Shown: in pieces, positions 568-19,318 of the stretch
Layout: each line of letters begins with the position of its first letter
How positions within the stretch are numbered: position 1 is the first letter of the stretch
Assembly: GCA_964446385.1 (NCBI GenBank)
Contig: CAYUOH010000013.1
Location: 1-55,182, forward strand
Origin: an uncultured Oscillospiraceae bacterium
GTDB lineage: Bacteria > Bacillota > Clostridia > Oscillospirales > Ruminococcaceae
Direction of reading: 5' to 3'
DNA: 55,182 nt
The notes under the pieces: generated by a model
The model's input: the letters and a program-made list of their open reading frames with translations, nothing else
Told to the model about the DNA's origin: nothing
Databases searched by the model: none
Position numbers and translations under genes: made by a program

Positions 568-1938
568 ATGGAAAACATTCACAAACTCTCCAGAGGACTT
601 AAACTCCGCTACGGAATCGGCGACTTTGGTGTCGCGGTGATGACTGCGAGTCTTCAGTTCTACATGCTGCTATACTACACTGACGTGGTAAAGATCGATC
701 CGGGCATCGCAGGAACCTCCATGCTGGTTGGCAAGCTGACGTGGGATACGGTCAATGATGTACTGTTTGGATACATCTCCGATCGCACGAAATCCCGTTG
801 GGGTAGGCGCAGGCCATATCTGATGTTTTGCCCGATTCCACTCGCTCTGTCGTTTTGGCTCCTGTATTCACTTCCGCAGGGCATGAGCAATGCCACGGCT
901 TTTTTTGCTATCATCGGTTCGTTCGTACTCTTTGATACATTCCATACCATGATCACCATGGCATATCAGTCCATGAGCGCTGAGCTGACAACAGACTACA
1001 ACGAGCGAACGAGCCTCGCGACGGTACGTATGGTATTCTCAGTTATCGGCTACATATCGGGTGCCGCGCTCACAACCTTACTGGCATCTATGATTCGCGA
1101 CAACACGGGAACCTCTGATTCGGCAGCTTGGAGCAAGGTAGGTTTGATCTTCGGCGTACTCGCGGCTATTACGGTTCTCATCACAGGGTTGACGGTTCGC
1201 GAAAAGCCGGTGGTGAACGATAGTCCTACTAAAATGCCCCCGCTGCGTGCACTGGTCAGTACACTGGAAAATAAACCCTTTTTGCGCTTTGTGGTCATCT
1301 CCAGTATCATGAGTACTGCGTTTACGGTGGTGACCGCTATGCTCCCATACTATGTGATCTACCAGCTCAATATGGAAAGCACGATGTCTATCATCATGAT
1401 GCTCATGCTCGTGGTACTTGGCTTGTTTTTGGTACCTTGTCAGATGGTTGCTATGCGCATCGGAAAACACAAGGCATACGCTCTGGGCTTGACCATTGCC
1501 TGCGCGGCTCTACTAGTTTCGTTTTTTTTACCGCATCGAGAGACGATACTCATCTACGCCATTGCCGTCGTTGCCGGATTGGGTTTTTCCAGCCAATGGG
1601 TCTGCCCGCATAGCATGATGCCTGATGTTATTGAATACGACGAACTAGTTACACACGAACGTCGTGAAGGTATCTACTTCGGCATGTGGAACATGACCGG
1701 TAAAATCACTGGCGCACTGGGCATTGCGATCTGCGGTTGGGGATTGAAGTTATTTGGCTATGTGGAAGGCGTTGAGCAAACTGCCACCTCACTGTTTGGC
1801 ATCCGTCTCATGTTTTCCGTGCTGCCCGTCGTTCTCCTACTTGTGAGAGTGCTGCTTCTCATGCGCTATCCGATCAACCGGGAAACGCATGCGAAAGTGC
1901 TTGAGGAAATAAACAACCGCAATCAAAAGTTGCAGTAA
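568..1938 (+). CDS. MFS transporter, glycoside-pentoside-hexuronide (GPH):cation symporter family (MelB-like)
   Basis: N-terminus KLSRGLKLRYGIGDFG and the D..R..RWGRRRPY motif are typical of GPH symporters; about 12 predicted TM helices. The ORF-track start at 475 adds 31 non-conserved residues, so the ATG at 568 is more likely. Confidence 0.8.
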   Translation: MENIHKLSRGLKLRYGIGDFGVAVMTASLQFYMLLYYTDVVKIDPGIAGTSMLVGKLTWDTVNDVLFGYISDRTKSRWGRRRPYLMFCPIPLALSFWLLYSLPQGMSNATAFFAIIGSFVLFDTFHTMITMAYQSMSAELTTDYNERTSLATVRMVFSVIGYISGAALTTLLASMIRDNTGTSDSAAWSKVGLIFGVLAAITVLITGLTVREKPVVNDSPTKMPPLRALVSTLENKPFLRFVVISSIMSTAFTVVTAMLPYYVIYQLNMESTMSIIMMLMLVVLGLFLVPCQMVAMRIGKHKAYALGLTIACAALLVSFFLPHRETILIYAIAVVAGLGFSSQWVCPHSMMPDVIEYDELVTHERREGIYFGMWNMTGKITGALGIAICGWGLKLFGYVEGVEQTATSLFGIRLMFSVLPVVLLLVRVLLLMRYPINRETHAKVLEEINNRNQKLQ

Positions 1939-2182
1939 GTCCATACCATGTGAAGCATGCAATTTCGGGCCTCTTATTGTTAACCTGCTCCCCGAAAACA
2001 AAACCAATTGTGGAATGATGAGAAAAATTTCAGCTTATCTCTGAGTCTAAATAAAAGAAAAACAAAGGCACCCTACGTTTGATTTCGTAGAGAGCCTTTT
2101 TTTAGGGATATTCATTTACATCCCAAATCACGCTGGAATTGAATTCTACAGCAAATCTGTCCTCATTGACATTGACCTTGTG

Positions 2183-4192
2183 TTATTCCTGCGCCTGGGG
2201 CACCAGTTCACTAACATTTGCTTCCTTGTTTGTGTCCTGCTCAATTGTCTTCATTATGGATTCTTTAATACTTTGAACCCGGGCGTTCTCTTCCTTGTTC
2301 CCACTGTTGAAATTGACGCCGAGCTTTTCGCTGATCAAAAGCCCAAGAAGCATCTCAAAGGCATTCACAGAGCTGCCTTGTTCCTGTCCACCCATGTTGA
2401 CCACGGTCTTTGGGACAATGTCAATTTGTGATTTCTCGATGGCTGCGGTAAATTTGCTCATGACATCCTGCACGACCTGATACTGCGGTCCACCGTATGC
2501 GCGGACCTGCTCTTCGATGGCTATGGCCTTGCCTATGCCTACTCTTGCCTCGCGTTCAGCCTCAGCCTCGGCAATCGCCTTGATCTTTGATGCCTCCTGA
2601 AGAGATCTTTGAAAATCGGCCTTACCCTGGTTGCTCTGAATCTGAATATTGATATCCGATTCTGTAAGCAACCTTTGCTGCAGCGCCTTGGACTCGGCTT
2701 CTCTGAGTTCTTTTTCCTTGCCTGCGGCTTTTTCCTGCTGCGCATAGGTTTCTATTCGCTCAACGGCTATCTGTCTGTCGCGTAGCTGTGCAAGTATAAC
2801 TTCAATCTTGTTGTCATTGGAGGACGCGGAGGGTGTACCGATGAGCACTTCCTCGAGCTCCAGGTTGTAATGCGCAAACTTTGCCTTCATTTCGAGGGAC
2901 GAGGTATTTTGAATATCATTTCTTTCATGAATAAGCTGTATGAGCGTCTTTGTCTGGCCGATGTTTTTGAAATATGCGGAGACCATCGGGTCAAGCGTTT
3001 GATCAACGAGCTTCTTGATATCGCCGAAGCGCTGGATTACCAGAGGCGCTTTCTTGTAGTCAATATGCATGACCACGGAAAGCGGAAGCGACGGTTCGAA
3101 AGCATCCTTTGTGATAAGGCTGACTTCCCTAAGATTTTCGTCAAAATTATGCGAACCTGTCTGGTTGCTGATCCACTTGAGTATGATGTTCGTTGTCGGG
3201 ACCCTTATGATCATTCCGGAATAAGTATTGAAGGCATATTTACCCGGCATGAGCGGTTCACTCCAGACACCGCGGAAGCCCTTTTCGACAAGTTCACCGT
3301 GCTTATATTCGTCTCCTGTGGAGTCAACACCTTTTTCACCAATAAAAGATACAACCACACCGACAAATCCGACGTCGATAAGGGTCTTGTCGATGAATTC
3401 CACTGTCGCAAAAAATCTGTTGATAAAGTATGTACCTTCGACAAGCGTTTGATACTGTCTGCCACGGAATCCGCCCGCTTTGAGAAATTTCTCAGGATCC
3501 TGAAAATTGTTATGGTATGTTTCCGGATTGTCCGGGTTATCACCGACGGCAGGTGCGATAATATCCTGCCTGTTGAGTGAAAGACCGTCGTGGACTGTTA
3601 CGATTCCGACCTTATCATCACTGCCTTTGATAACGATAGGTCTGAAGCCGTCACGCTCCCTGAGTTGTTCCGCCATATTGATTATCGTAGACTCCTCAGA
3701 TTTTGTGCCCATAGGCAGATAGTAAATTCTGTCCTGTGTTATGATGACAAACTGCGCAAGATTAAATGCGTATGTACCTTCACGAACAATGCCGCGCTGG
3801 GGCCCTTTCTGGCCTCCGTTAAGTAAAAAAGCTTTGGCATTTTGAAAATTACTGCCTTCAGGGACGACTTTGCCCAGAGTCTGAATAGGTTCAAGAGGCC
3901 GTCCGTCCCGAGCGAAGACATAAGCGATCTGCCCTTGCGGCACAGTCACAAGCGGACAGAGGTGCACAATATACATTAGCGGAGACAGAAGATGCAGACC
4001 GCCTCTGATAATCTGTGGCTGGAAACCGGCTTCGCCATTAAGTGCGATGATCTGCTCGTTCAACGAGCCCTTTGTAGACCACCATTTTTCTACTATCGCA
4101 ATCTTGTTGTTAGGTACAATTCTTAGACCGATAAGCCAAAAGAATAGAACAATGCCGAAAACAATTGAAATTGTAAGCAACAAACCGTCCAT
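2183..4192 (-). CDS. flotillin-like SPFH/band-7 domain protein (YqiK/FloT-like), 669 aa
   Basis: N-terminal TM helix, SPFH domain, and a long Ala/Glu-rich coiled coil (AEAEAEREARVG...) typical of bacterial flotillins; AGGAGG SD 6 nt upstream of the ATG at 4192. Confidence 0.8.
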   Translation of the reverse strand: MDGLLLTISIVFGIVLFFWLIGLRIVPNNKIAIVEKWWSTKGSLNEQIIALNGEAGFQPQIIRGGLHLLSPLMYIVHLCPLVTVPQGQIAYVFARDGRPLEPIQTLGKVVPEGSNFQNAKAFLLNGGQKGPQRGIVREGTYAFNLAQFVIITQDRIYYLPMGTKSEESTIINMAEQLRERDGFRPIVIKGSDDKVGIVTVHDGLSLNRQDIIAPAVGDNPDNPETYHNNFQDPEKFLKAGGFRGRQYQTLVEGTYFINRFFATVEFIDKTLIDVGFVGVVVSFIGEKGVDSTGDEYKHGELVEKGFRGVWSEPLMPGKYAFNTYSGMIIRVPTTNIILKWISNQTGSHNFDENLREVSLITKDAFEPSLPLSVVMHIDYKKAPLVIQRFGDIKKLVDQTLDPMVSAYFKNIGQTKTLIQLIHERNDIQNTSSLEMKAKFAHYNLELEEVLIGTPSASSNDNKIEVILAQLRDRQIAVERIETYAQQEKAAGKEKELREAESKALQQRLLTESDINIQIQSNQGKADFQRSLQEASKIKAIAEAEAEREARVGIGKAIAIEEQVRAYGGPQYQVVQDVMSKFTAAIEKSQIDIVPKTVVNMGGQEQGSSVNAFEMLLGLLISEKLGVNFNSGNKEENARVQSIKESIMKTIEQDTNKEANVSELVPQAQE

Positions 4193-12702: not shown

Positions 12703-14121
12703 TTAAAACCCCTCGCTGATTATCAGATTACCATTGCCTGCGAATTTCGATGCTGCATCATACTTATGCCAAATCTGATATGTCACGCTGTAACCCTTGC
12801 AGGTAATCTTTACTGTATATCTTGCAGTGGGATCGTAGGAGAACATTTGATTAACATCTATGGAGAGATGCGTTTTTCCACCTCCCAGATCATCGTTGAG
12901 ATTAAAATACTGAATTTGTGTGATATCTAGAGGTACACCATTTCTACTTACTTCATAATCATAACTCAGGTAATGATTATTGCTTTTGGTGCGAATGTAA
13001 ATACTATAATGCCCCAAATTTGGTTGATCAATTTCTTCTACTCCGCCAAAGATATGACAGCTTATAGATCTCATTTCTTCCACAGGCCCGACAACGACTA
13101 AATCGAAAGCCATCCCGTCCATGTTATCTTCAAATTTAGCGTACTGGGTTTCATCTACAAATACCTTTTTCAGAGACCTGCAATCAACAAGAGGTGCGAT
13201 ATCAACAATCTGCGTACCGCTAATACACAATTCTTTCAACCGTGAAAGATTTTCGATGCCGGAAATATCTCTGATGGGATTTCCTGTAAGATCTAAATAT
13301 TCAATGTTGCGCAGTACCCAGAGCGGGCTCGCATCGGTAATCAGATTCGCTGCGACAGTAAGTTCCTTTAAATTCTTCAGTTGTGAAAAGTCGCTAACGC
13401 TTTCGATGCTGCCAAAATGTGCAGTACTCTCATTTCCGTGAAAAAAAACGGCCGGATTCTTCTGATGGTTCTCGTAGTCTATCTCTGTCCCAATGAACGA
13501 AGTATCACTGCGTTGTTCATCCACGCTTTCCCCATAAAGATAGACATGCTCAATATCCGACATTCGTCCGGAATATCCTAATTTTGCGAGCAGTGAATCC
13601 TCAGATACTTTCGCTCCGACCTGCGTGGCGAGAACTACAGTGAACGCAACTGTGAGCAATATGACTCCGCTTAGCCCCCAGGTCGTCCAACTAGCCGCGC
13701 GTTTTTGAGCAGTAGTAACCTGAAGATTCCGCATAAGTGTGGAAAAGACAAGTTTGTCCAGAAAGGCTTCCTCGGAAGCACAATCATGCCGTAAAATCCC
13801 TTGCTGCGTATTTAGCAGCAATCGCTGCGTGGGCGTAAGGCTGACTGGAGCAATATGCACAACCAAGAGAGGATTATTCATCTGAACAGCATATGTGATA
13901 GTTCGGTTGACCTCGTAGTTTTCTAATGCTGCAGGCGATAAAAGGAGCAAAACAAGAGCAGACTTTTTGATACGCATTTTATCAAAACGTGTACTCGGCC
14001 AGACTTCATATCCCTTATCCCGTAAAGCCAAGAGCACCTTCATTACATATTCACTGTCTTCCGGTGCGAACATCGCATAGACAAACGGTTTGCCATTTCC
14101 AGAATAAGGTTTGAACTCCAT
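12703..14121 (-). CDS. membrane protein: N-terminal divergent TIR domain, 1 TM helix, C-terminal leucine-rich repeats plus a beta-rich domain (472 aa)
   Basis: The N-terminus PFVYAMFAPEDSEYVMKVLLALRDKGYEVW aligns to the TIR fold but the FISY/CE motifs are degenerate; TM at about aa 148-168; internalin-type LRRs (LKELTVAANLITDASPL..LDLTGNPIRDISGIENLSRLKELCISGTQIVDIAPL); AAGGAGG SD 12 nt after the upstream gene stop. Confidence 0.7.
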   Translation of the reverse strand: MEFKPYSGNGKPFVYAMFAPEDSEYVMKVLLALRDKGYEVWPSTRFDKMRIKKSALVLLLLSPAALENYEVNRTITYAVQMNNPLLVVHIAPVSLTPTQRLLLNTQQGILRHDCASEEAFLDKLVFSTLMRNLQVTTAQKRAASWTTWGLSGVILLTVAFTVVLATQVGAKVSEDSLLAKLGYSGRMSDIEHVYLYGESVDEQRSDTSFIGTEIDYENHQKNPAVFFHGNESTAHFGSIESVSDFSQLKNLKELTVAANLITDASPLWVLRNIEYLDLTGNPIRDISGIENLSRLKELCISGTQIVDIAPLVDCRSLKKVFVDETQYAKFEDNMDGMAFDLVVVGPVEEMRSISCHIFGGVEEIDQPNLGHYSIYIRTKSNNHYLSYDYEVSRNGVPLDITQIQYFNLNDDLGGGKTHLSIDVNQMFSYDPTARYTVKITCKGYSVTYQIWHKYDAASKFAGNGNLIISEGF

Positions 14122-14132
14122 ATTCTCCTCCT

Positions 14133-15269
14133 TTACTCGGTCACTACCACTTCAAAGTTACCGGTAATTATATCCGAAACATAAGGCACCATATCAAGGC
14201 TTACATAGAGTTTCTGTAAGCCCGTCATTTCCAGAGCAGGTGATAAATCTGTAATACCGGTGTGTGAGAGTTTTAGAACTGAGATATTGTCCAAACCGGA
14301 AAGAGGCATCAAATCCTTAACATCATTACCGGAAAGATCAAGGTATGTTAGTTTGGTAAGATTCTGTAGCGCCGTCAAATCAGTAATGTTTTGATAACAG
14401 ATCGCCAGCTCATTGAGATTGATCAGTTTGGAAATGGCGGTCAGGTCGGAGATATCGCCACGCTGCACCGCTGTACCGCCGACGCAAAATGCGCCGTTCT
14501 GATAATCGATTCCGCTGCGAGTGGTTACAAACGCGTTTCCGCAACAGTAGAGAGCTTCACCGCTAGTCTGAGAGATAATAAGATCACGCATCATCGTACT
14601 GGACCAGGTGGTCATCTCAATGATCTGTGCGCTTTCTTCCGAATTGCCCGGGGTGACGGCCAAAGTCGTCGTGGTTAATCCGGGTTTCTCGCCAAACCAG
14701 CCGCGCATATATCCCAACAGTGCAACGCCGAATACTACAGCCAACGCGATACCGACTATTCCGACGATCAATGCTGTGTTCAGGTGTTTGGGGTTTGGAT
14801 CACGCTCAATTTCATAGCCTTCCTTGCCGTCTCCGATCAGTTCATTTTGCAACGCACCGGATTGAATGAGCCTTTCTGCGGTATCAGCAGCTATGCTACC
14901 CGCAGTAATATTTGTCGCGGGCGAAAGCTGCATCTTCATTCCCGGTGGCATCGGTGCGTCGTCCATGCACACACATGCCATCGTCTTTTTCGCATCAACG
15001 GCGAAATTGATTTCCCGCTCGCAGTTACGGTTTGTGTTGAAATTTTCTGACGGAAAGAATAGCACGACGGTAGCGTTTTCAAGATGATTGGCGATAAACT
15101 CTGCCCAGCGTGCGCCCGCCTCGATGCCTTCGTCGTACCAGACACGATATCCGCGTTTGTGTAGTTCCTCCGCAATCGGTAACACCGCAACGCTGTCCAC
15201 GTGTGCATAGCTGATAAAAATGAATGGTTTTTCTCCGCGGTAGACCGGAAACCTCGCTCTTGAAGCCAT
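14133..15269 (-). CDS. membrane protein: N-terminal canonical TIR domain, 1 TM helix, C-terminal leucine-rich repeats (378 aa)
   Basis: KPFIFISYAHVD...RVWYDEGIEAGARW...NCEREINFAV are the classic bacterial TIR motifs, including the putative catalytic Glu; TM IVGIVGIALAVVFGVALLGY; LRRs LTKLTYLDLSGNDVKDLMPLSGLDNISVLKLSHTGITDL. Confidence 0.8.
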   Translation of the reverse strand: MASRARFPVYRGEKPFIFISYAHVDSVAVLPIAEELHKRGYRVWYDEGIEAGARWAEFIANHLENATVVLFFPSENFNTNRNCEREINFAVDAKKTMACVCMDDAPMPPGMKMQLSPATNITAGSIAADTAERLIQSGALQNELIGDGKEGYEIERDPNPKHLNTALIVGIVGIALAVVFGVALLGYMRGWFGEKPGLTTTTLAVTPGNSEESAQIIEMTTWSSTMMRDLIISQTSGEALYCCGNAFVTTRSGIDYQNGAFCVGGTAVQRGDISDLTAISKLINLNELAICYQNITDLTALQNLTKLTYLDLSGNDVKDLMPLSGLDNISVLKLSHTGITDLSPALEMTGLQKLYVSLDMVPYVSDIITGNFEVVVTE

Positions 15270-15465
15270 TTTCCTTTACCTCAATATTATTAAAATCCTG
15301 TATATGATTGTCAATGGCTGAACAGATATGATATTGCATTCCACGGTGTAACCAAGTACATCATTTCAGAAGCGATATGTGCTCGCTCTGCTTTATGCAG
15401 ACATTCCACGAGTCTACCATAGCGTGCGTATATTTTTAATACTATTATATCTAGAAAAACTTATA

Positions 15466-15494
15466 ATTGAAAGGGTTGCACTTTAATGCTATAT
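15466..15494 (+). promoter_or_regulatory. candidate sigma-A promoter TTGAAA-17-TATATT for the HD/RyR operon
   Basis: Hexamers with a 17-nt spacer about 95 nt upstream of the start at 15590, in the divergent intergenic region. Confidence 0.35.
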
Positions 15495-15589
15495 TTCTGT
15501 TAAAAGAAATATTCACTTTTATGGTAGCTGAATAATAATCGTTATGTATTAATGTGGCACTAACCCGCAATAAGGAAGGAGTTCGAGAA

Positions 15590-17617
15590 ATGAGTTATCG
15601 CGCGCTCAATAATATGCGAAATAAGAATCTTGATAAGTATCATTTGGAACACACAGTCCGAATTCCCCCTTTACCTGAGACAAAACGGAATTATGGCAAA
15701 GAGGCACTGCTTTTTATCCGCGACTGCTGTGAAGACCTAAAATTTGACTATAGTACAGAATCACGCAGATCTTTTTCCGATTCTGACGGCAGAAGCGCCG
15801 GGAAAAACCAGATTCCATACAACATGGAGCGTGACCTGGATCGCCTCAGTTTTGAAGTGGCAATCGGGCGGTTTCTCTCCTCCGGTTCAAAGGAGGACGC
15901 ATTTGATATCTATTATTGCTACTGCGAGATTTTCAAGCCGTTTGGCACAGGTTATGATTCCACGGGGTTACTGCTGGAACTTTTGAGCGAGCACGAATCC
16001 AATGCAAGTTCGCTTCTTATGAAGCATCGTGACCATTATTCTCACAGCGTATATGTTTTCCTTATCGGGCTTGTCATCTACAAGAATCTATCTTCATTTC
16101 GGACAGCTTACAACAGTAAGTACGGATTTAAGGACAGCAAAGAAGCCTCGTGCCATTTTCTTGAGTATTGGGGACTAACCTCTCTGTTTCACGATGTCGG
16201 ATATCCCTTTGAAATCGCGCATCAACAGATGAAATCTTATGTATGCAAACTGGATTCGAATAACAACGACGCCTTCGGTTTTTCACCATATGTGTCATAC
16301 CGTAATGTAGACGAGTTTGCGTTATCCAGGCTCGGCGATTTAAACGATTTTTACGCAAAAGCTATCATCGAACGCCTTTGCGAGGGTTACCTAAGCCACA
16401 CGGACATCGAACCCTATTATGCAGAGCACCAGCTTCAAAAGGCCCTGAAGGATCGCGCGATCCATGAAAATCCGACAGAAAAGGATTACCTCTACATGGA
16501 TCACGCTTATTTCAGTGGACTAATTATGGCAAAGACCTATCTCAAGCGACACAAGGAAATTGACCGCTATGAAATGTTGCCGCCTGCGGTGCTGGATGCG
16601 TTATGTGCCATAATTCTGCATAACAGCCTGTTTAAATTTACCATGCGCTCTTTTTTACACACGCAGGAACCTCTGCGCCTCTCCGACGGGCAGCCCCTCT
16701 GTTACCTGCTGATGTTTTGCGATGAGTTGCAGTGTTGGGACAGAACCTCCTATGGGCAGAACAGCCGAAATGGTATTTACGCGTTTGATTTTGATCTGGA
16801 GTTTACGCGTGACGGAATGCGCTGGATTTACTATTATGACCAAAGTTACGAAAGAAAGGTATTGAATGCGAAGTCATACGCCGACATGCTCTATGATGGG
16901 TATAGGAAAAAAACAGGCGCAGTGCGGAACGGTCGCAGCAGGTTTGTGGACGACATAGATGAAATCACCTTCATCCGAGACATCGTTACAGCATTTGAAC
17001 CGAATGTGAATACGCCAGATCCCAGTGCAATTATAGAAACTCGTATCGAAAAAAAGCAGAAGCGCACGGGACTGTATCTTTCTGATAGCAATTATCTCAA
17101 CCTATATTCTTTTGCCCTCGCTCTTAACGGGCGCTACGCAGGTGCCAAAACTGTAGAGCAAATGAAAACAGCCTTTGAAGAAAACCTGTCGCTTGAATAT
17201 AAACTTTCCAATATTGCGCAAGCAAAGGGATTTGCCGCGCAGTTGGAGTCAATCGACTGTTTTTATACCGACCGAGCGGTTGATTATTTACCCGTGACCG
17301 ATTTTCATGCGCTTACACAGGAAAGGGGACACGAGAACGACCTTATGAAAATAGCCGTTGCGGAGCATGAACGCTGGTGCAAAGAGAAGTGCGCAATGGG
17401 TTGGGATTACGGCACCGCTCATGTTGAAGCTGACATACTGCCCGACGGCAGTAAAATGAACGACAACGAAATGCGCGAGCGCACAAGGCTGCACCACGAC
17501 ATAACTGACTTTGACCATCTGGATGCGCAGGAGCATTTTAAGGACTCCGATCCGATGGAACATATGCTGGAGTTGATTCGAGAATACGACGGGCTGACCA
17601 TTTATCGCACCGAATGA
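15590..17617 (+). CDS. HD-domain phosphohydrolase fused to a C-terminal RyR (ryanodine-receptor-type) domain, 675 aa
   Basis: HD signature H(RDHYSHS)...LFHDVGYP...D; C-terminus AEHERWCKEKCAMGWDYG...HHDITDFDHLDAQEH matches the RyR-domain consensus (HE.W...GW.YG). AAGGAAGGA SD before the ATG at 15590; the ORF-track start at 15554 is less likely. Confidence 0.7.
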   Translation: MSYRALNNMRNKNLDKYHLEHTVRIPPLPETKRNYGKEALLFIRDCCEDLKFDYSTESRRSFSDSDGRSAGKNQIPYNMERDLDRLSFEVAIGRFLSSGSKEDAFDIYYCYCEIFKPFGTGYDSTGLLLELLSEHESNASSLLMKHRDHYSHSVYVFLIGLVIYKNLSSFRTAYNSKYGFKDSKEASCHFLEYWGLTSLFHDVGYPFEIAHQQMKSYVCKLDSNNNDAFGFSPYVSYRNVDEFALSRLGDLNDFYAKAIIERLCEGYLSHTDIEPYYAEHQLQKALKDRAIHENPTEKDYLYMDHAYFSGLIMAKTYLKRHKEIDRYEMLPPAVLDALCAIILHNSLFKFTMRSFLHTQEPLRLSDGQPLCYLLMFCDELQCWDRTSYGQNSRNGIYAFDFDLEFTRDGMRWIYYYDQSYERKVLNAKSYADMLYDGYRKKTGAVRNGRSRFVDDIDEITFIRDIVTAFEPNVNTPDPSAIIETRIEKKQKRTGLYLSDSNYLNLYSFALALNGRYAGAKTVEQMKTAFEENLSLEYKLSNIAQAKGFAAQLESIDCFYTDRAVDYLPVTDFHALTQERGHENDLMKIAVAEHERWCKEKCAMGWDYGTAHVEADILPDGSKMNDNEMRERTRLHHDITDFDHLDAQEHFKDSDPMEHMLELIREYDGLTIYRTE

Positions 17618-17671: not shown

Positions 17672-19318
17672 GTGGGCATCCCGATTGTTGTCGGCGTAAC
17701 CGGCCATCGCTCACTGCGAACGCAAGATCTTTCGATGCTGCGCGCAGTTGTTTCAGCACAGTTGGAAAAGTTGATTGTTTCATACCCGAATTCCCAGTTT
17801 GTCATGTTGAATTCTATTGCATCCGGCGCGGATACTCTCTGCGCAATGGTCGCACTGGAACTGGGAATACGGCTGATTTGCCCGTTACCTATGCCGATTG
17901 AAGAGTATCGCAAAGATTTTACCGGCACGGACGCGACTTCATTTGATGCGCTGATTCTGCAGGCCGAGCGCCTTTTTGTTGTACCTGATAACGGTTTGTC
18001 TCCAAATCTTACGAGGGATGAGCATTATATGAACTCAGGCAGATACATCGCAAGGCACAGCTGCCTGCTTCTTGCTCTTTGGGACGGAATGCCCGCTAAA
18101 CCGGACGGTTGTGGAACGGCGGAGACTGTATCTTTTATGCTCGGTGCCAGCGACGAAGCGACTACCGGCTGCCTTAAAGCAGCGAACAATGGCGCGGTTC
18201 TCCACATATATACGCCTAAGCAAGGAGAAGAGTGCGAATTACAAAATCCATCTGTCCGTCTTCTGGAAAACGTACCGGGCTGTCTGAAAAACACGCTGGA
18301 GACAATAGATACATTCAACACAGATACAAGGAGAATAGCCAGCGACGTTAAAAAGACTGAGCCGCTCATAACAAAGGGTATCCTTTCCGAGATGCCGGAA
18401 GACATACAGCAGCTTCATGAGGTATATCAGACGTCAGATAGCCTGTCACTTCGGTTTCAGGCAAGATACTTACATGCGATCCGATATTTATCTATATTCG
18501 GCGCGATGCTGGTGCTATTTTTCCTACTCTACGACGAAATGGAGAGTAATTTGTTTTTAATTTTATACGGGCTGCTGATCCTGTTTTATGTGCTGACTTT
18601 CGTGAGAATTCGTAAAAGCCAAGCGCATGAAAAGTACCTTCGTTACCGTATGCTCTCCGAAACGCTTCGCGTGCAATTTTTTCTCTGCGCAGCCGGATCA
18701 AACGACAATGTAGCTGACGAATTTACCTGGACACAGAAGCAGGAAACTGCATGGATTAAGCAGACCATTTCGGCGCTGCTTATCGGTGAATCAGCAAGGC
18801 AATCGCTACCCGATGAAACGATTAATAAATTGTGGATTGAAGGTCAGCTTTCTTATCATGAAAGTGCATATCGTCGCTCCTTCGGTCAGCAACATATCCG
18901 TGAGACCACCGCAAATTGGGTGCTTGCTGCTACCTTTGCTCTCTTTATCCTTGTATTAGTGCTGGAGTTCACGTTTGATTCTGCCATGACAAAGACGCTG
19001 TTCCGGAAACCTTTCCCGCCTCTTATGCTCTATCACAGCGGACAAACGGTCACTCTCCGAAACCTTATGAAAATACTGCTCGGCACGGTTTCGGCTATAG
19101 CCGTGTTTTTCACTAATTATTACGGAAAACTCTCCTTGGGCAGAAAGAGTATCGACCATAACCGTATGGCTCACCTGTATGCCTCGGCGAAGGAACAGTA
19201 TGCATCCCAAAAAAATGATTACATGTCTCTTTTCATCGCGCTTGCACGCGAGGAGATCATCGAGATCGGCAACTGGTTTTCCTATAGCCGAGAGAATGCG
19301 CCTTCTTTTCAGATATGA
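17672..19318 (+). CDS. SLOG-like (LOG/DprA/YpsA-type Rossmannoid) N-domain fused to a C-terminal multi-TM (SLATT-like) region, 548 aa
   Basis: GTG start 5 nt after an AAGGAG SD; N-terminus IVVGVTGHR...SGADTLCAMVALELG...DGCGTAETV resembles the LOG-family GGxGTxxE and DprA GxD..AH motifs; four predicted TM helices after aa 250. Confidence 0.5.
   Translation: MGIPIVVGVTGHRSLRTQDLSMLRAVVSAQLEKLIVSYPNSQFVMLNSIASGADTLCAMVALELGIRLICPLPMPIEEYRKDFTGTDATSFDALILQAERLFVVPDNGLSPNLTRDEHYMNSGRYIARHSCLLLALWDGMPAKPDGCGTAETVSFMLGASDEATTGCLKAANNGAVLHIYTPKQGEECELQNPSVRLLENVPGCLKNTLETIDTFNTDTRRIASDVKKTEPLITKGILSEMPEDIQQLHEVYQTSDSLSLRFQARYLHAIRYLSIFGAMLVLFFLLYDEMESNLFLILYGLLILFYVLTFVRIRKSQAHEKYLRYRMLSETLRVQFFLCAAGSNDNVADEFTWTQKQETAWIKQTISALLIGESARQSLPDETINKLWIEGQLSYHESAYRRSFGQQHIRETTANWVLAATFALFILVLVLEFTFDSAMTKTLFRKPFPPLMLYHSGQTVTLRNLMKILLGTVSAIAVFFTNYYGKLSLGRKSIDHNRMAHLYASAKEQYASQKNDYMSLFIALAREEIIEIGNWFSYSRENAPSFQI

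Follow-up and report, generated by a model that had tools for sequence, protein, structure and literature searches.

We describe here a 55,182-nt window (contig CAYUOH010000013.1 of assembly GCA_964446385.1, from an uncultured Oscillospiraceae bacterium) in which a gene for a predicted HD-fold enzyme carrying RyR repeats, hereafter HD-RyR, lies among genes for TIR and SLOG proteins. The HD-RyR gene occupies positions 15590-17617 of the forward strand and encodes 675 residues followed by a stop codon. Its open reading frame starts at ATG 15590, with the ribosome-binding site AAGGAAGGAG just 5', and its stop codon ends at 17617; these limits had been given correctly in a preliminary description of the locus, which had also placed a SLOG-TM gene directly downstream and TIR genes in divergent orientation, as is indeed the case. 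An in-frame GTG at 15554 was considered as the start and rejected because the homologues, which keep M1, begin at the methionine encoded by ATG 15590. Judged from the sequence and a predicted structure, we regard it as settled that the product combines an HD-fold enzyme with a tandem RyR module and is genomically tied to TIR and SLOG proteins.

The protein begins with a helical N-terminal extension (residues 1-129), followed by an HD/PDEase-fold catalytic core (approximately residues 130-395; 15977-16774, forward strand) with the predicted metal ligands H152, H201, D202, H305, H344 and D378. A small alpha/beta linker domain (approximately 396-495; 16775-17074, forward strand), made of strands and helices in our AlphaFold2 model and matching no Pfam family, leads into two RyR units on the same strand. 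The first is a degenerate RyR-like repeat (approximately 496-578; 17075-17323) without the H..W ligand motif, and the second is a canonical repeat (579-675; 17324-17614) with H593, W596, R629/R633, H635, K651 and D652 as candidate ligands. The model was built with 35 homologues as input and reached a pLDDT of 84.3 and a pTM of 0.90.

The HD fold was revealed by the predicted structure only, after sequence models had failed. None of the HD models in Pfam (PF01966 and relatives), NCBIfam or PADLOC matched HD-RyR, even at E <= 1; PHROGS and NCBIfam gave no match of any kind for the protein, a search of PDB sequences with a profile of the HD-RyR family turned up no HD protein at E <= 10, and a phmmer search of PDB sequences with the protein itself gave no HD match either. 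The model nevertheless predicts, with confidence, an all-alpha HD/phosphodiesterase fold. In a fold comparison its closest relatives were small-molecule and cyclic-nucleotide phosphodiesterases, and the matches include SidE-type phosphodiesterases, which cut ADP-ribose (ADPR)-ubiquitin. Conservation was assessed in 93 cluster representatives with pairwise identities of at most 50%. H152, H201-D202, H305, H344 and D378, a pattern that corresponds to the six-ligand set of binuclear HD enzymes, are invariant in the 35 homologues and 96-98% conserved in the representatives, and the range is 92-98% when D304 and N345 are counted with them. Conservation of 90-98% at each position extends to the surrounding residues (R147, D148, H149, H152, S153, H201, D202, G204, Y205, D304, H305, H344, N345, C377, D378, E379, Q381, W383 and R385), which make up invariant motifs of the family's own: RDHYSHS, HDxGYPFE, MDHAYFS, LHN and CDELQCWDR. 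A bare H...HD...D pattern arises trivially by chance, and the evidence for an HD domain is therefore the fold and the conservation taken together; since the curated HD sequence models were all negative, membership is assigned at the level of fold and superfamily only. The confidently modelled HD fold and the 96-98% conservation of the six-ligand pattern make it very probable that this domain is an active metal-dependent phosphohydrolase, of a lineage outside current models. Its link to the class I cyclic-nucleotide phosphodiesterases (PF00233) is one of fold similarity, with no Pfam match. The PDEase_I signature HDxxHxGxxN is absent from HD-RyR, which has HDVGYPFEIAHQ in its place; after HD it reads GYPFEIAHQ, as against xxHxGxxN in PDEase_I.

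The RyR assignment could be made from sequence as well. The Pfam model PF02026, alone among Pfam models to match HD-RyR at E <= 1, aligned with residues 582-613 (20.8 bits, E 4.6e-4), under its gathering score of 27.4, whereas homologues of HD-RyR score 29.8-46.6 bits, over that threshold, and many of them carry a precomputed PF02026 annotation. In hmmsearch comparisons with solved RyR repeats, the family profile matched a B. thetaiotaomicron (Bt)/human RyR chimera (E 2.4e-6), RyR3 (1e-5) and RyR2 (1.2e-5). The domain call of the preliminary description, HD plus RyR, is thus borne out by the HD fold, the metal-ligand conservation and the RyR profile and fold matches. The modelled structure contains the RyR repeat fold. 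Foldseek aligned about 200 columns with Repeat12 of human RyR3 (848-1055) at a sequence identity of about 14%, hhalign related residues 529-561 of HD-RyR to its own residues 638-670 (P 0.0024), and in a relative of 25% identity the first repeat retains an 'AIHARY' motif, albeit in a weak sub-alignment. For these reasons we read residues 496-675 as a degenerate and a canonical repeat forming a probable single-chain equivalent of R12. That the RyR part appears to be such a tandem R12-like module is a point beyond the preliminary description.

The second repeat keeps the candidate pocket residues: H593, W596 (H+3), H635 and K651-D652 (H635+16/+17), with spacing identical to that in the phage proteins RyDEP and RyR Tad except for one loop insertion. 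Across the family these positions are 69-83% conserved, H593 and D652 being at 78-80%. The preliminary description held RyR domains to be of unknown function in bacteria, a statement now outdated, as two preprints of 2026 show phage RyR-domain proteins to bind or cleave cyclic ADP-ribose (cADPR) isomers, with nanomolar to sub-micromolar affinity for 2'cADPR, 3'cADPR and cADPR (PMC13232231; 10.64898/2026.06.04.730250). RyDEP, from a mycobacteriophage, is a glycosidase that opens 2'cADPR and 3'cADPR by cleaving the ribose-ribose bond; H75 and D117 carry out catalysis, W78 stacks on the adenine and H100 on the phosphates, and other phage RyR homologues of RyDEP bind the signal at nanomolar affinity without cleavage (PMC13232231). 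RyR Tad (gp68) sponges 3'cADPR, 2'cADPR and cADPR via H129/W132, K147/H154 and K170/D171 (10.64898/2026.06.04.730250). On the strength of these phage data and the residue conservation, the RyR pocket of HD-RyR most likely binds an ADPR-derived product of the TIR proteins encoded with it.

The SLOG-4TM gene (17672-19318, forward strand) has a GTG start five bases past an AAAGGAG site and 54 nt past the HD-RyR stop codon, and no terminator is predicted in the gap. Its product has a YpsA-like SLOG domain (residues 1 to about 215), the fold of which was confirmed, followed by four transmembrane (TM) helices resembling two SLATT units, with weak tandem SLATT matches, and it matches the predicted '4TM SLOG' class of Thoeris effectors. 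On the other side of HD-RyR lie two divergent genes for proteins with an N-terminal TIR_2 domain, a single TM helix and C-terminal leucine-rich repeats (LRRs). TIR1 (14133-15269, reverse strand; 378 residues) matches Pfam TIR_2 at 2.7e-19 as well as LRR_4 and LRR_8, with its TM helix at about 161-179, and TIR2 (12703-14121, reverse strand; 472 residues) matches TIR_2 at 6.5e-7 and LRR_4 at 7.4e-19, with its helix at about 146-164. In an alignment made without a reference structure, E86 of TIR1, a catalytic-type residue, falls in the conserved glutamate column, whereas the TIR domain of TIR2 is degenerate, with a threonine in that column and also a deletion; for this reason TIR2 may be a non-catalytic partner. 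In domain content the two proteins correspond to Toll-like receptors, but the order is inverted, the LRRs following the TM helix, and these LRRs are presumably extracytoplasmic. The divergent intergenic region (15270-15589) holds promoter-like sites towards both operons, known as consensus matches only: TTGAAA-17-TATATT with a TG on the HD-RyR side (15467-15495, forward strand; 10/12) and TTGACA-17-AATAAT on the TIR side (15314-15286, reverse strand; 11/12).

The block from 12.7 to 19.3 kb has a GC content of 0.44-0.48, as against 0.37-0.39 in its flanks, which hold cell-envelope and phosphate-transport genes. This higher value suggests that the block may have been acquired horizontally; around the block we found no integrase, no tRNA genes and no terminal or meaningful flanking repeats. 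Elsewhere in the window, outside the TIR/HD-RyR/SLOG block, a 669-residue protein (2183-4192, reverse strand) has SPFH/Band 7 as its sole Pfam match.

The HD-RyR family is large, cellular and essentially absent from virus collections. A word-indexed search gave more than 1,900 homologues, with 245 cluster representatives at E <= 1e-30, mainly from metagenome-assembled genomes (MAGs) of Clostridia, Erysipelotrichales and Coriobacteriia and scattered through other phyla. Among genome contigs there were 84 confirmed matches, 80 loci being kept, while of 50,697 phage records only one gave a tblastn match, and IMG/VR contributed a single locus. Longer members of the family (812-1,070 residues) show no Pfam domain in their extra regions. 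A RyR profile that includes a Bacteroides thetaiotaomicron sequence returned at least 120 near-identical 100-residue Bacteroides RyR proteins among the matches listed. The crystallised B. thetaiotaomicron RyR protein (3NRT, 100 residues) was seen in locus L094 (6001-8355), where an unannotated 682-residue protein starts 4 nt after it and there is no TIR neighbour.

To survey genomic context, open reading frames were called in 92 loci and the window, and labels were assigned from locally built hidden Markov models; scoring was confined to 51 non-redundant loci in which HD-RyR has three or more genes to either side. In 39 of the 51 a TIR gene is found no more than three genes away from HD-RyR, and in 30 it is the immediate neighbour, in line with the defence-type context that the preliminary description had envisaged for orthologues. 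The gaps between the genes often measure 1-23 nt. SLOG was found in 13 of the 51 loci, a second RyR-bearing protein within four genes in 18, and at least one of TIR, SLOG and a second RyR in 43. Clustering of neighbours in 72 loci gave a similar picture: soluble TIR proteins in 25 (mostly at +1), SLOG with or without 4TM in 19 (mostly at +1, and including SLOG-only neighbours without a TM module), a TM-X-RyR protein of about 450 residues in 19 (mostly at +3), TIR-TM(-LRR) proteins in 15 (mostly upstream) and a 405-residue PD-(D/E)XK protein in 14 (at +2). A Pfam census of 89 unlabelled same-strand neighbours revealed no further dominant partner, only scattered WD40, TPR, kinase, ABC/AAA_21 and PD-(D/E)XK proteins.

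Two layouts recur. Relatives at 57-85% identity have [TIR-TM-LRR]n [HD-RyR][SLOG(-4TM)], as in the window, and a Lachnospiraceae-type layout at 34-43% identity reads [HD-RyR][TIR][PD-(D/E)XK][TM-X-RyR], with gaps often of 1-50 nt. Locus L054 (9875-16435) provides an example of the latter, with a soluble TIR, a 405-residue PD-(D/E)XK_4 protein and the TM-X-RyR protein of about 450 residues, and L056, L058, L059, L088 and L092 are similar. The TM-X-RyR protein has N-terminal TM helices, a middle domain without a known family and a C-terminal RyR repeat, such that within one TIR operon the RyR module can occur in two fusions, one with HD and one with another module that contains TM helices. Pairs of [HD-RyR][TIR] are also duplicated in tandem, and in some loci HD-RyR and TIR are the only identifiable components. 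Even a member of only 25% identity has TIR-LRR genes on one side and a SLOG-4TM gene on the other, its synteny retained, while a distant clade keeps TIR and lacks SLOG. Chance adjacency of HD-RyR and TIR was considered and rejected, as the two remain linked at identities as low as 25% and across several arrangements of the genes. The conserved partner of the family is TIR, not SLOG. SLOG is nonetheless at times a close companion: loci L010 and L028 have [HD-RyR][SLOG] pairs without TIR nearby, and HD-RyR-SLOG triple fusions exist (P0159, P0168 and P0170; 745-824 residues), with a C-terminal domain homologous to the SLOG domain of the window (29% identity, E 2e-11). In L097 such a fusion (1555-3861) directly follows a TIR-LRR gene, and apart from the TIR protein only its HD domain is recognisable as a catalytic output; the fusion faces a convergent 679-residue multi-TM protein with a Rossmann-like motif.

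Some further arrangements were seen once or twice. In a Christensenella MAG (L001, 10105-17063), the genes after HD-RyR encode a TIR-LRR_5 protein, a TIR-FHA-PP2C phosphatase and a 1,094-residue Ser/Thr kinase with TPR, a gene set that suggests phosphorylation control of the TIR system. A stand-alone 153-residue RyR protein lies two open reading frames upstream of HD-RyR in L011 (5840-6301) and L012 (4298-6230); the intervening gene in L012 is annotated as weak TIR_2 plus methyltransferase. In a digester lineage (L006, 12098-13470) an AbiEii/HTH toxin-antitoxin pair adjoins the TIR/HD-RyR/SLOG-4TM genes, the only clear defence-island neighbour seen.

How, then, might HD-RyR act? The reading we favour, which we judge to be evenly poised between right and wrong, is that HD-RyR is a Thoeris-like effector in which the RyR module would sense the TIR product and the HD domain would provide the output. 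Four observations lead us to prefer it: one RyR module is joined to different N-terminal modules within a single operon, [HD-RyR][TIR] pairs duplicate together, some loci hold only TIR and HD-RyR(-SLOG), and islands with several TIR proteins and several effectors have been described. On this proposal, an activated, membrane-anchored TIR-TM-LRR protein with the catalytic glutamate would convert NAD+ into an ADPR-derived signal, for example a cADPR isomer, which would enter the RyR pocket (H593, W596, H635, K651-D652) and switch on the HD domain. The latter would then hydrolyse a phosphoester in the nucleotide pool, in a cyclic nucleotide or in nucleic acid. In parallel, the signal would bind the SLOG domain of SLOG-4TM, leading to membrane damage, and the stimulated cell would in the end stop growing or die. 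The preliminary description had offered two roles, an off-switch or a nuclease effector. Architecture and phyletic pattern favour the effector, or output, side of that choice, and a nuclease specifically is unsupported, the closest folds being cyclic-nucleotide phosphodiesterases.

Several observations weigh against an effector of this kind. No PADLOC defence model matches HD-RyR; the same search gave only a weak PD-T7-3 match for SLOG-4TM and weak ThsB/TIR matches for TIR1 alone. In the window the block is flanked by housekeeping genes and not by a defence island, and in eight of the 51 scored loci no TIR, SLOG or second RyR gene lies within the three to four genes examined. Extracytoplasmic LRRs suggest envelope or extracellular sensing, unlike known Thoeris sensors. 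The presence of equivalents of the RyDEP dyad, H593 and D652, makes it possible that the RyR repeat cleaves the signal and does not merely receive it. Finally, locus L103 (1-8659) has a window-like divergent TIR-LRR array and SLOG-4TM, with a 370-residue TIR protein in the position of HD-RyR; as this shows the TIR-LRR/SLOG-4TM system without it, HD-RyR is dispensable there and could be an accessory.

The last two points bear on the main rival explanation, in which HD-RyR is a host-encoded enzyme of signal turnover, an off-switch or reset that would limit or end the activation of SLOG-4TM. Here the RyR pocket would bind a cADPR isomer and may open its ribose-ribose bond, and the HD domain may then cleave the ADPR pyrophosphate or otherwise destroy the signal. 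In RyDEP there is a precedent for an RyR domain that acts as a cADPR glycosidase through an H/D dyad, the HD fold is matched best by phosphodiesterases of small molecules, the SidE type among them, SLOG-4TM alone is a predicted Thoeris effector type, and a system complete without HD-RyR, as in L103, is what would be expected of an accessory. Yet [TIR-LRR][HD-RyR-SLOG] loci, and likewise those in which only HD-RyR and TIR can be identified, offer no other recognisable effector on which an off-switch could act, unless TIR itself is an NAD-depleting one. The RyR module also occurs, in the same operons, on a non-enzymatic-looking TM module, as would a sensor swapped between outputs; phage RyR proteins that share these residues and have been tested mostly bind the signal and leave it intact; and the Thoeris literature searched describes no host-encoded signal degrader. 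On balance we think turnover unlikely, while taking it seriously.

The triple fusions, the SLOG gene immediately downstream in 19 of the 72 loci (in some of them a SLOG without a TM module) and the two [HD-RyR][SLOG] pairs away from TIR would also fit a signal-processing partnership, in which HD-RyR converts the TIR product for SLOG or the two form a two-sensor complex, one obligate unit in either case. Such a unit is improbable in our view, because the distant clade keeps TIR without SLOG, SLOG-4TM is found with TIR and without HD-RyR, and known SLOG effectors bind the TIR product directly. A protein of a mobile element, neutralising the Thoeris signal to the advantage of a prophage or similar carrier, might be suspected from the elevated GC of the block and from the fact that, among RyR-domain proteins associated with prokaryotes, those characterised so far are all anti-Thoeris factors of phages. 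The distribution speaks the other way: genome contigs gave 84 confirmed matches, and the virus collections only one phage record out of 50,697 and a single IMG/VR locus. Moreover, HD-RyR genes lie close to TIR genes in the same orientation and seem to share an operon with them, the block lacks flanking integrase or tRNA genes and terminal repeats, and a 675-residue multidomain enzyme is not a small sponge; we therefore give an anti-defence role very little credence. Returning to the effector reading, a wider proposal is that the tandem RyR module is the native bacterial receptor for TIR-made cyclic ADP-ribose, swapped between outputs as CARF and SAVED are, with phage sponges and the R12/R34 repeats of animal ryanodine receptors as its descendants; we advance this tentatively, as rather doubtful.

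Bacteria, plants and animals all use TIR-made ADP-ribose signals to drive immunity and, to our knowledge, the reception and termination of these signals are understood for only a few effector families. If HD-RyR is an effector, bacterial TIR signalling would gain both a new type of receptor, the RyR repeat, and a new output, a divergent HD hydrolase. If turnover is correct, the family would instead represent a host-encoded enzyme that switches TIR signals off, which is not found in the Thoeris literature searched. The receptor proposal, if true, would place direct sensing of cADPR by RyR channels on a structural and evolutionary footing. The family also bears on the old question in calcium signalling of whether cADPR acts directly on ryanodine receptors: with its tandem R12-like module paired with a TIR signal generator, HD-RyR offers a simple soluble system for studying how RyR repeats recognise cADPR isomers. 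The TIR-TM-LRR partners in turn hint at envelope or extracellular sensing that feeds a TIR signal.

Thoeris systems consist of a ThsB TIR protein and a signal-binding effector. The window shares with them one or more TIR proteins beside proteins carrying domains known to bind TIR-made ADPR derivatives, and its Thoeris-type traits, known here from the genes alone, are two divergent TIR_2 genes, a neighbouring SLOG and a conserved RyR pocket. It differs in that its TIRs are single-pass membrane proteins with C-terminal LRRs. The closest kinds, as set out in a survey preprint (10.64898/2025.12.03.692087), are the predicted '4TM SLOG' type and type III, in which several TIRs accompany a SLOG effector. 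In that survey, '4TM SLOG' operons tested in E. coli gave no defence, and neither HD nor RyR occurs as an effector term in the accessible text or supplements (10.64898/2025.12.03.692087). Islands that combine multiple ThsB proteins with multiple different effectors are already known. The literature searched for RyR and Thoeris together contains only papers on phage counter-defence, none of which describes a TIR operon that encodes an RyR protein of the host, and the tirE cluster of Enterococcus faecium, also considered, is an unrelated and different small three-gene locus. No curated defence model covers HD-RyR, and the accessible part of the Thoeris survey makes no mention of such an effector; if HD-RyR responds to the signal made by the TIR proteins, as is probable, it would be an undescribed part of a Thoeris-like immune system.

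With RyDEP (PMC13232231) and RyR Tad gp68 (10.64898/2026.06.04.730250), HD-RyR has in common the PF02026-type fold, identically spaced ligand residues (H..W, H and K-D/D) and a tie to TIR/Thoeris signalling. The phage proteins, however, are small homodimers with a single repeat per chain, and they block immunity by sponging or cleaving the signal, whereas HD-RyR is cellular, 675 residues long, built with a tandem module fused to HD, and encoded with TIR genes rather than against them. CARF and SAVED fusions and ThsA (SLOG-SIR2) likewise pair a small ligand-binding module with varied outputs in operons with a signal generator; the sensor proposed here differs in being an RyR repeat, a role not found for any host immune protein in the searchable literature. 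Its closest structural counterpart lies in the ryanodine receptor, where the tandem repeats of R12 form one two-lobed module, as in HD-RyR, and bind adenine nucleotides in the equivalent pocket. HD-RyR departs from R12 in having the pocket residues in the second repeat only, and in carrying the module on a predicted hydrolase rather than on an ion channel.

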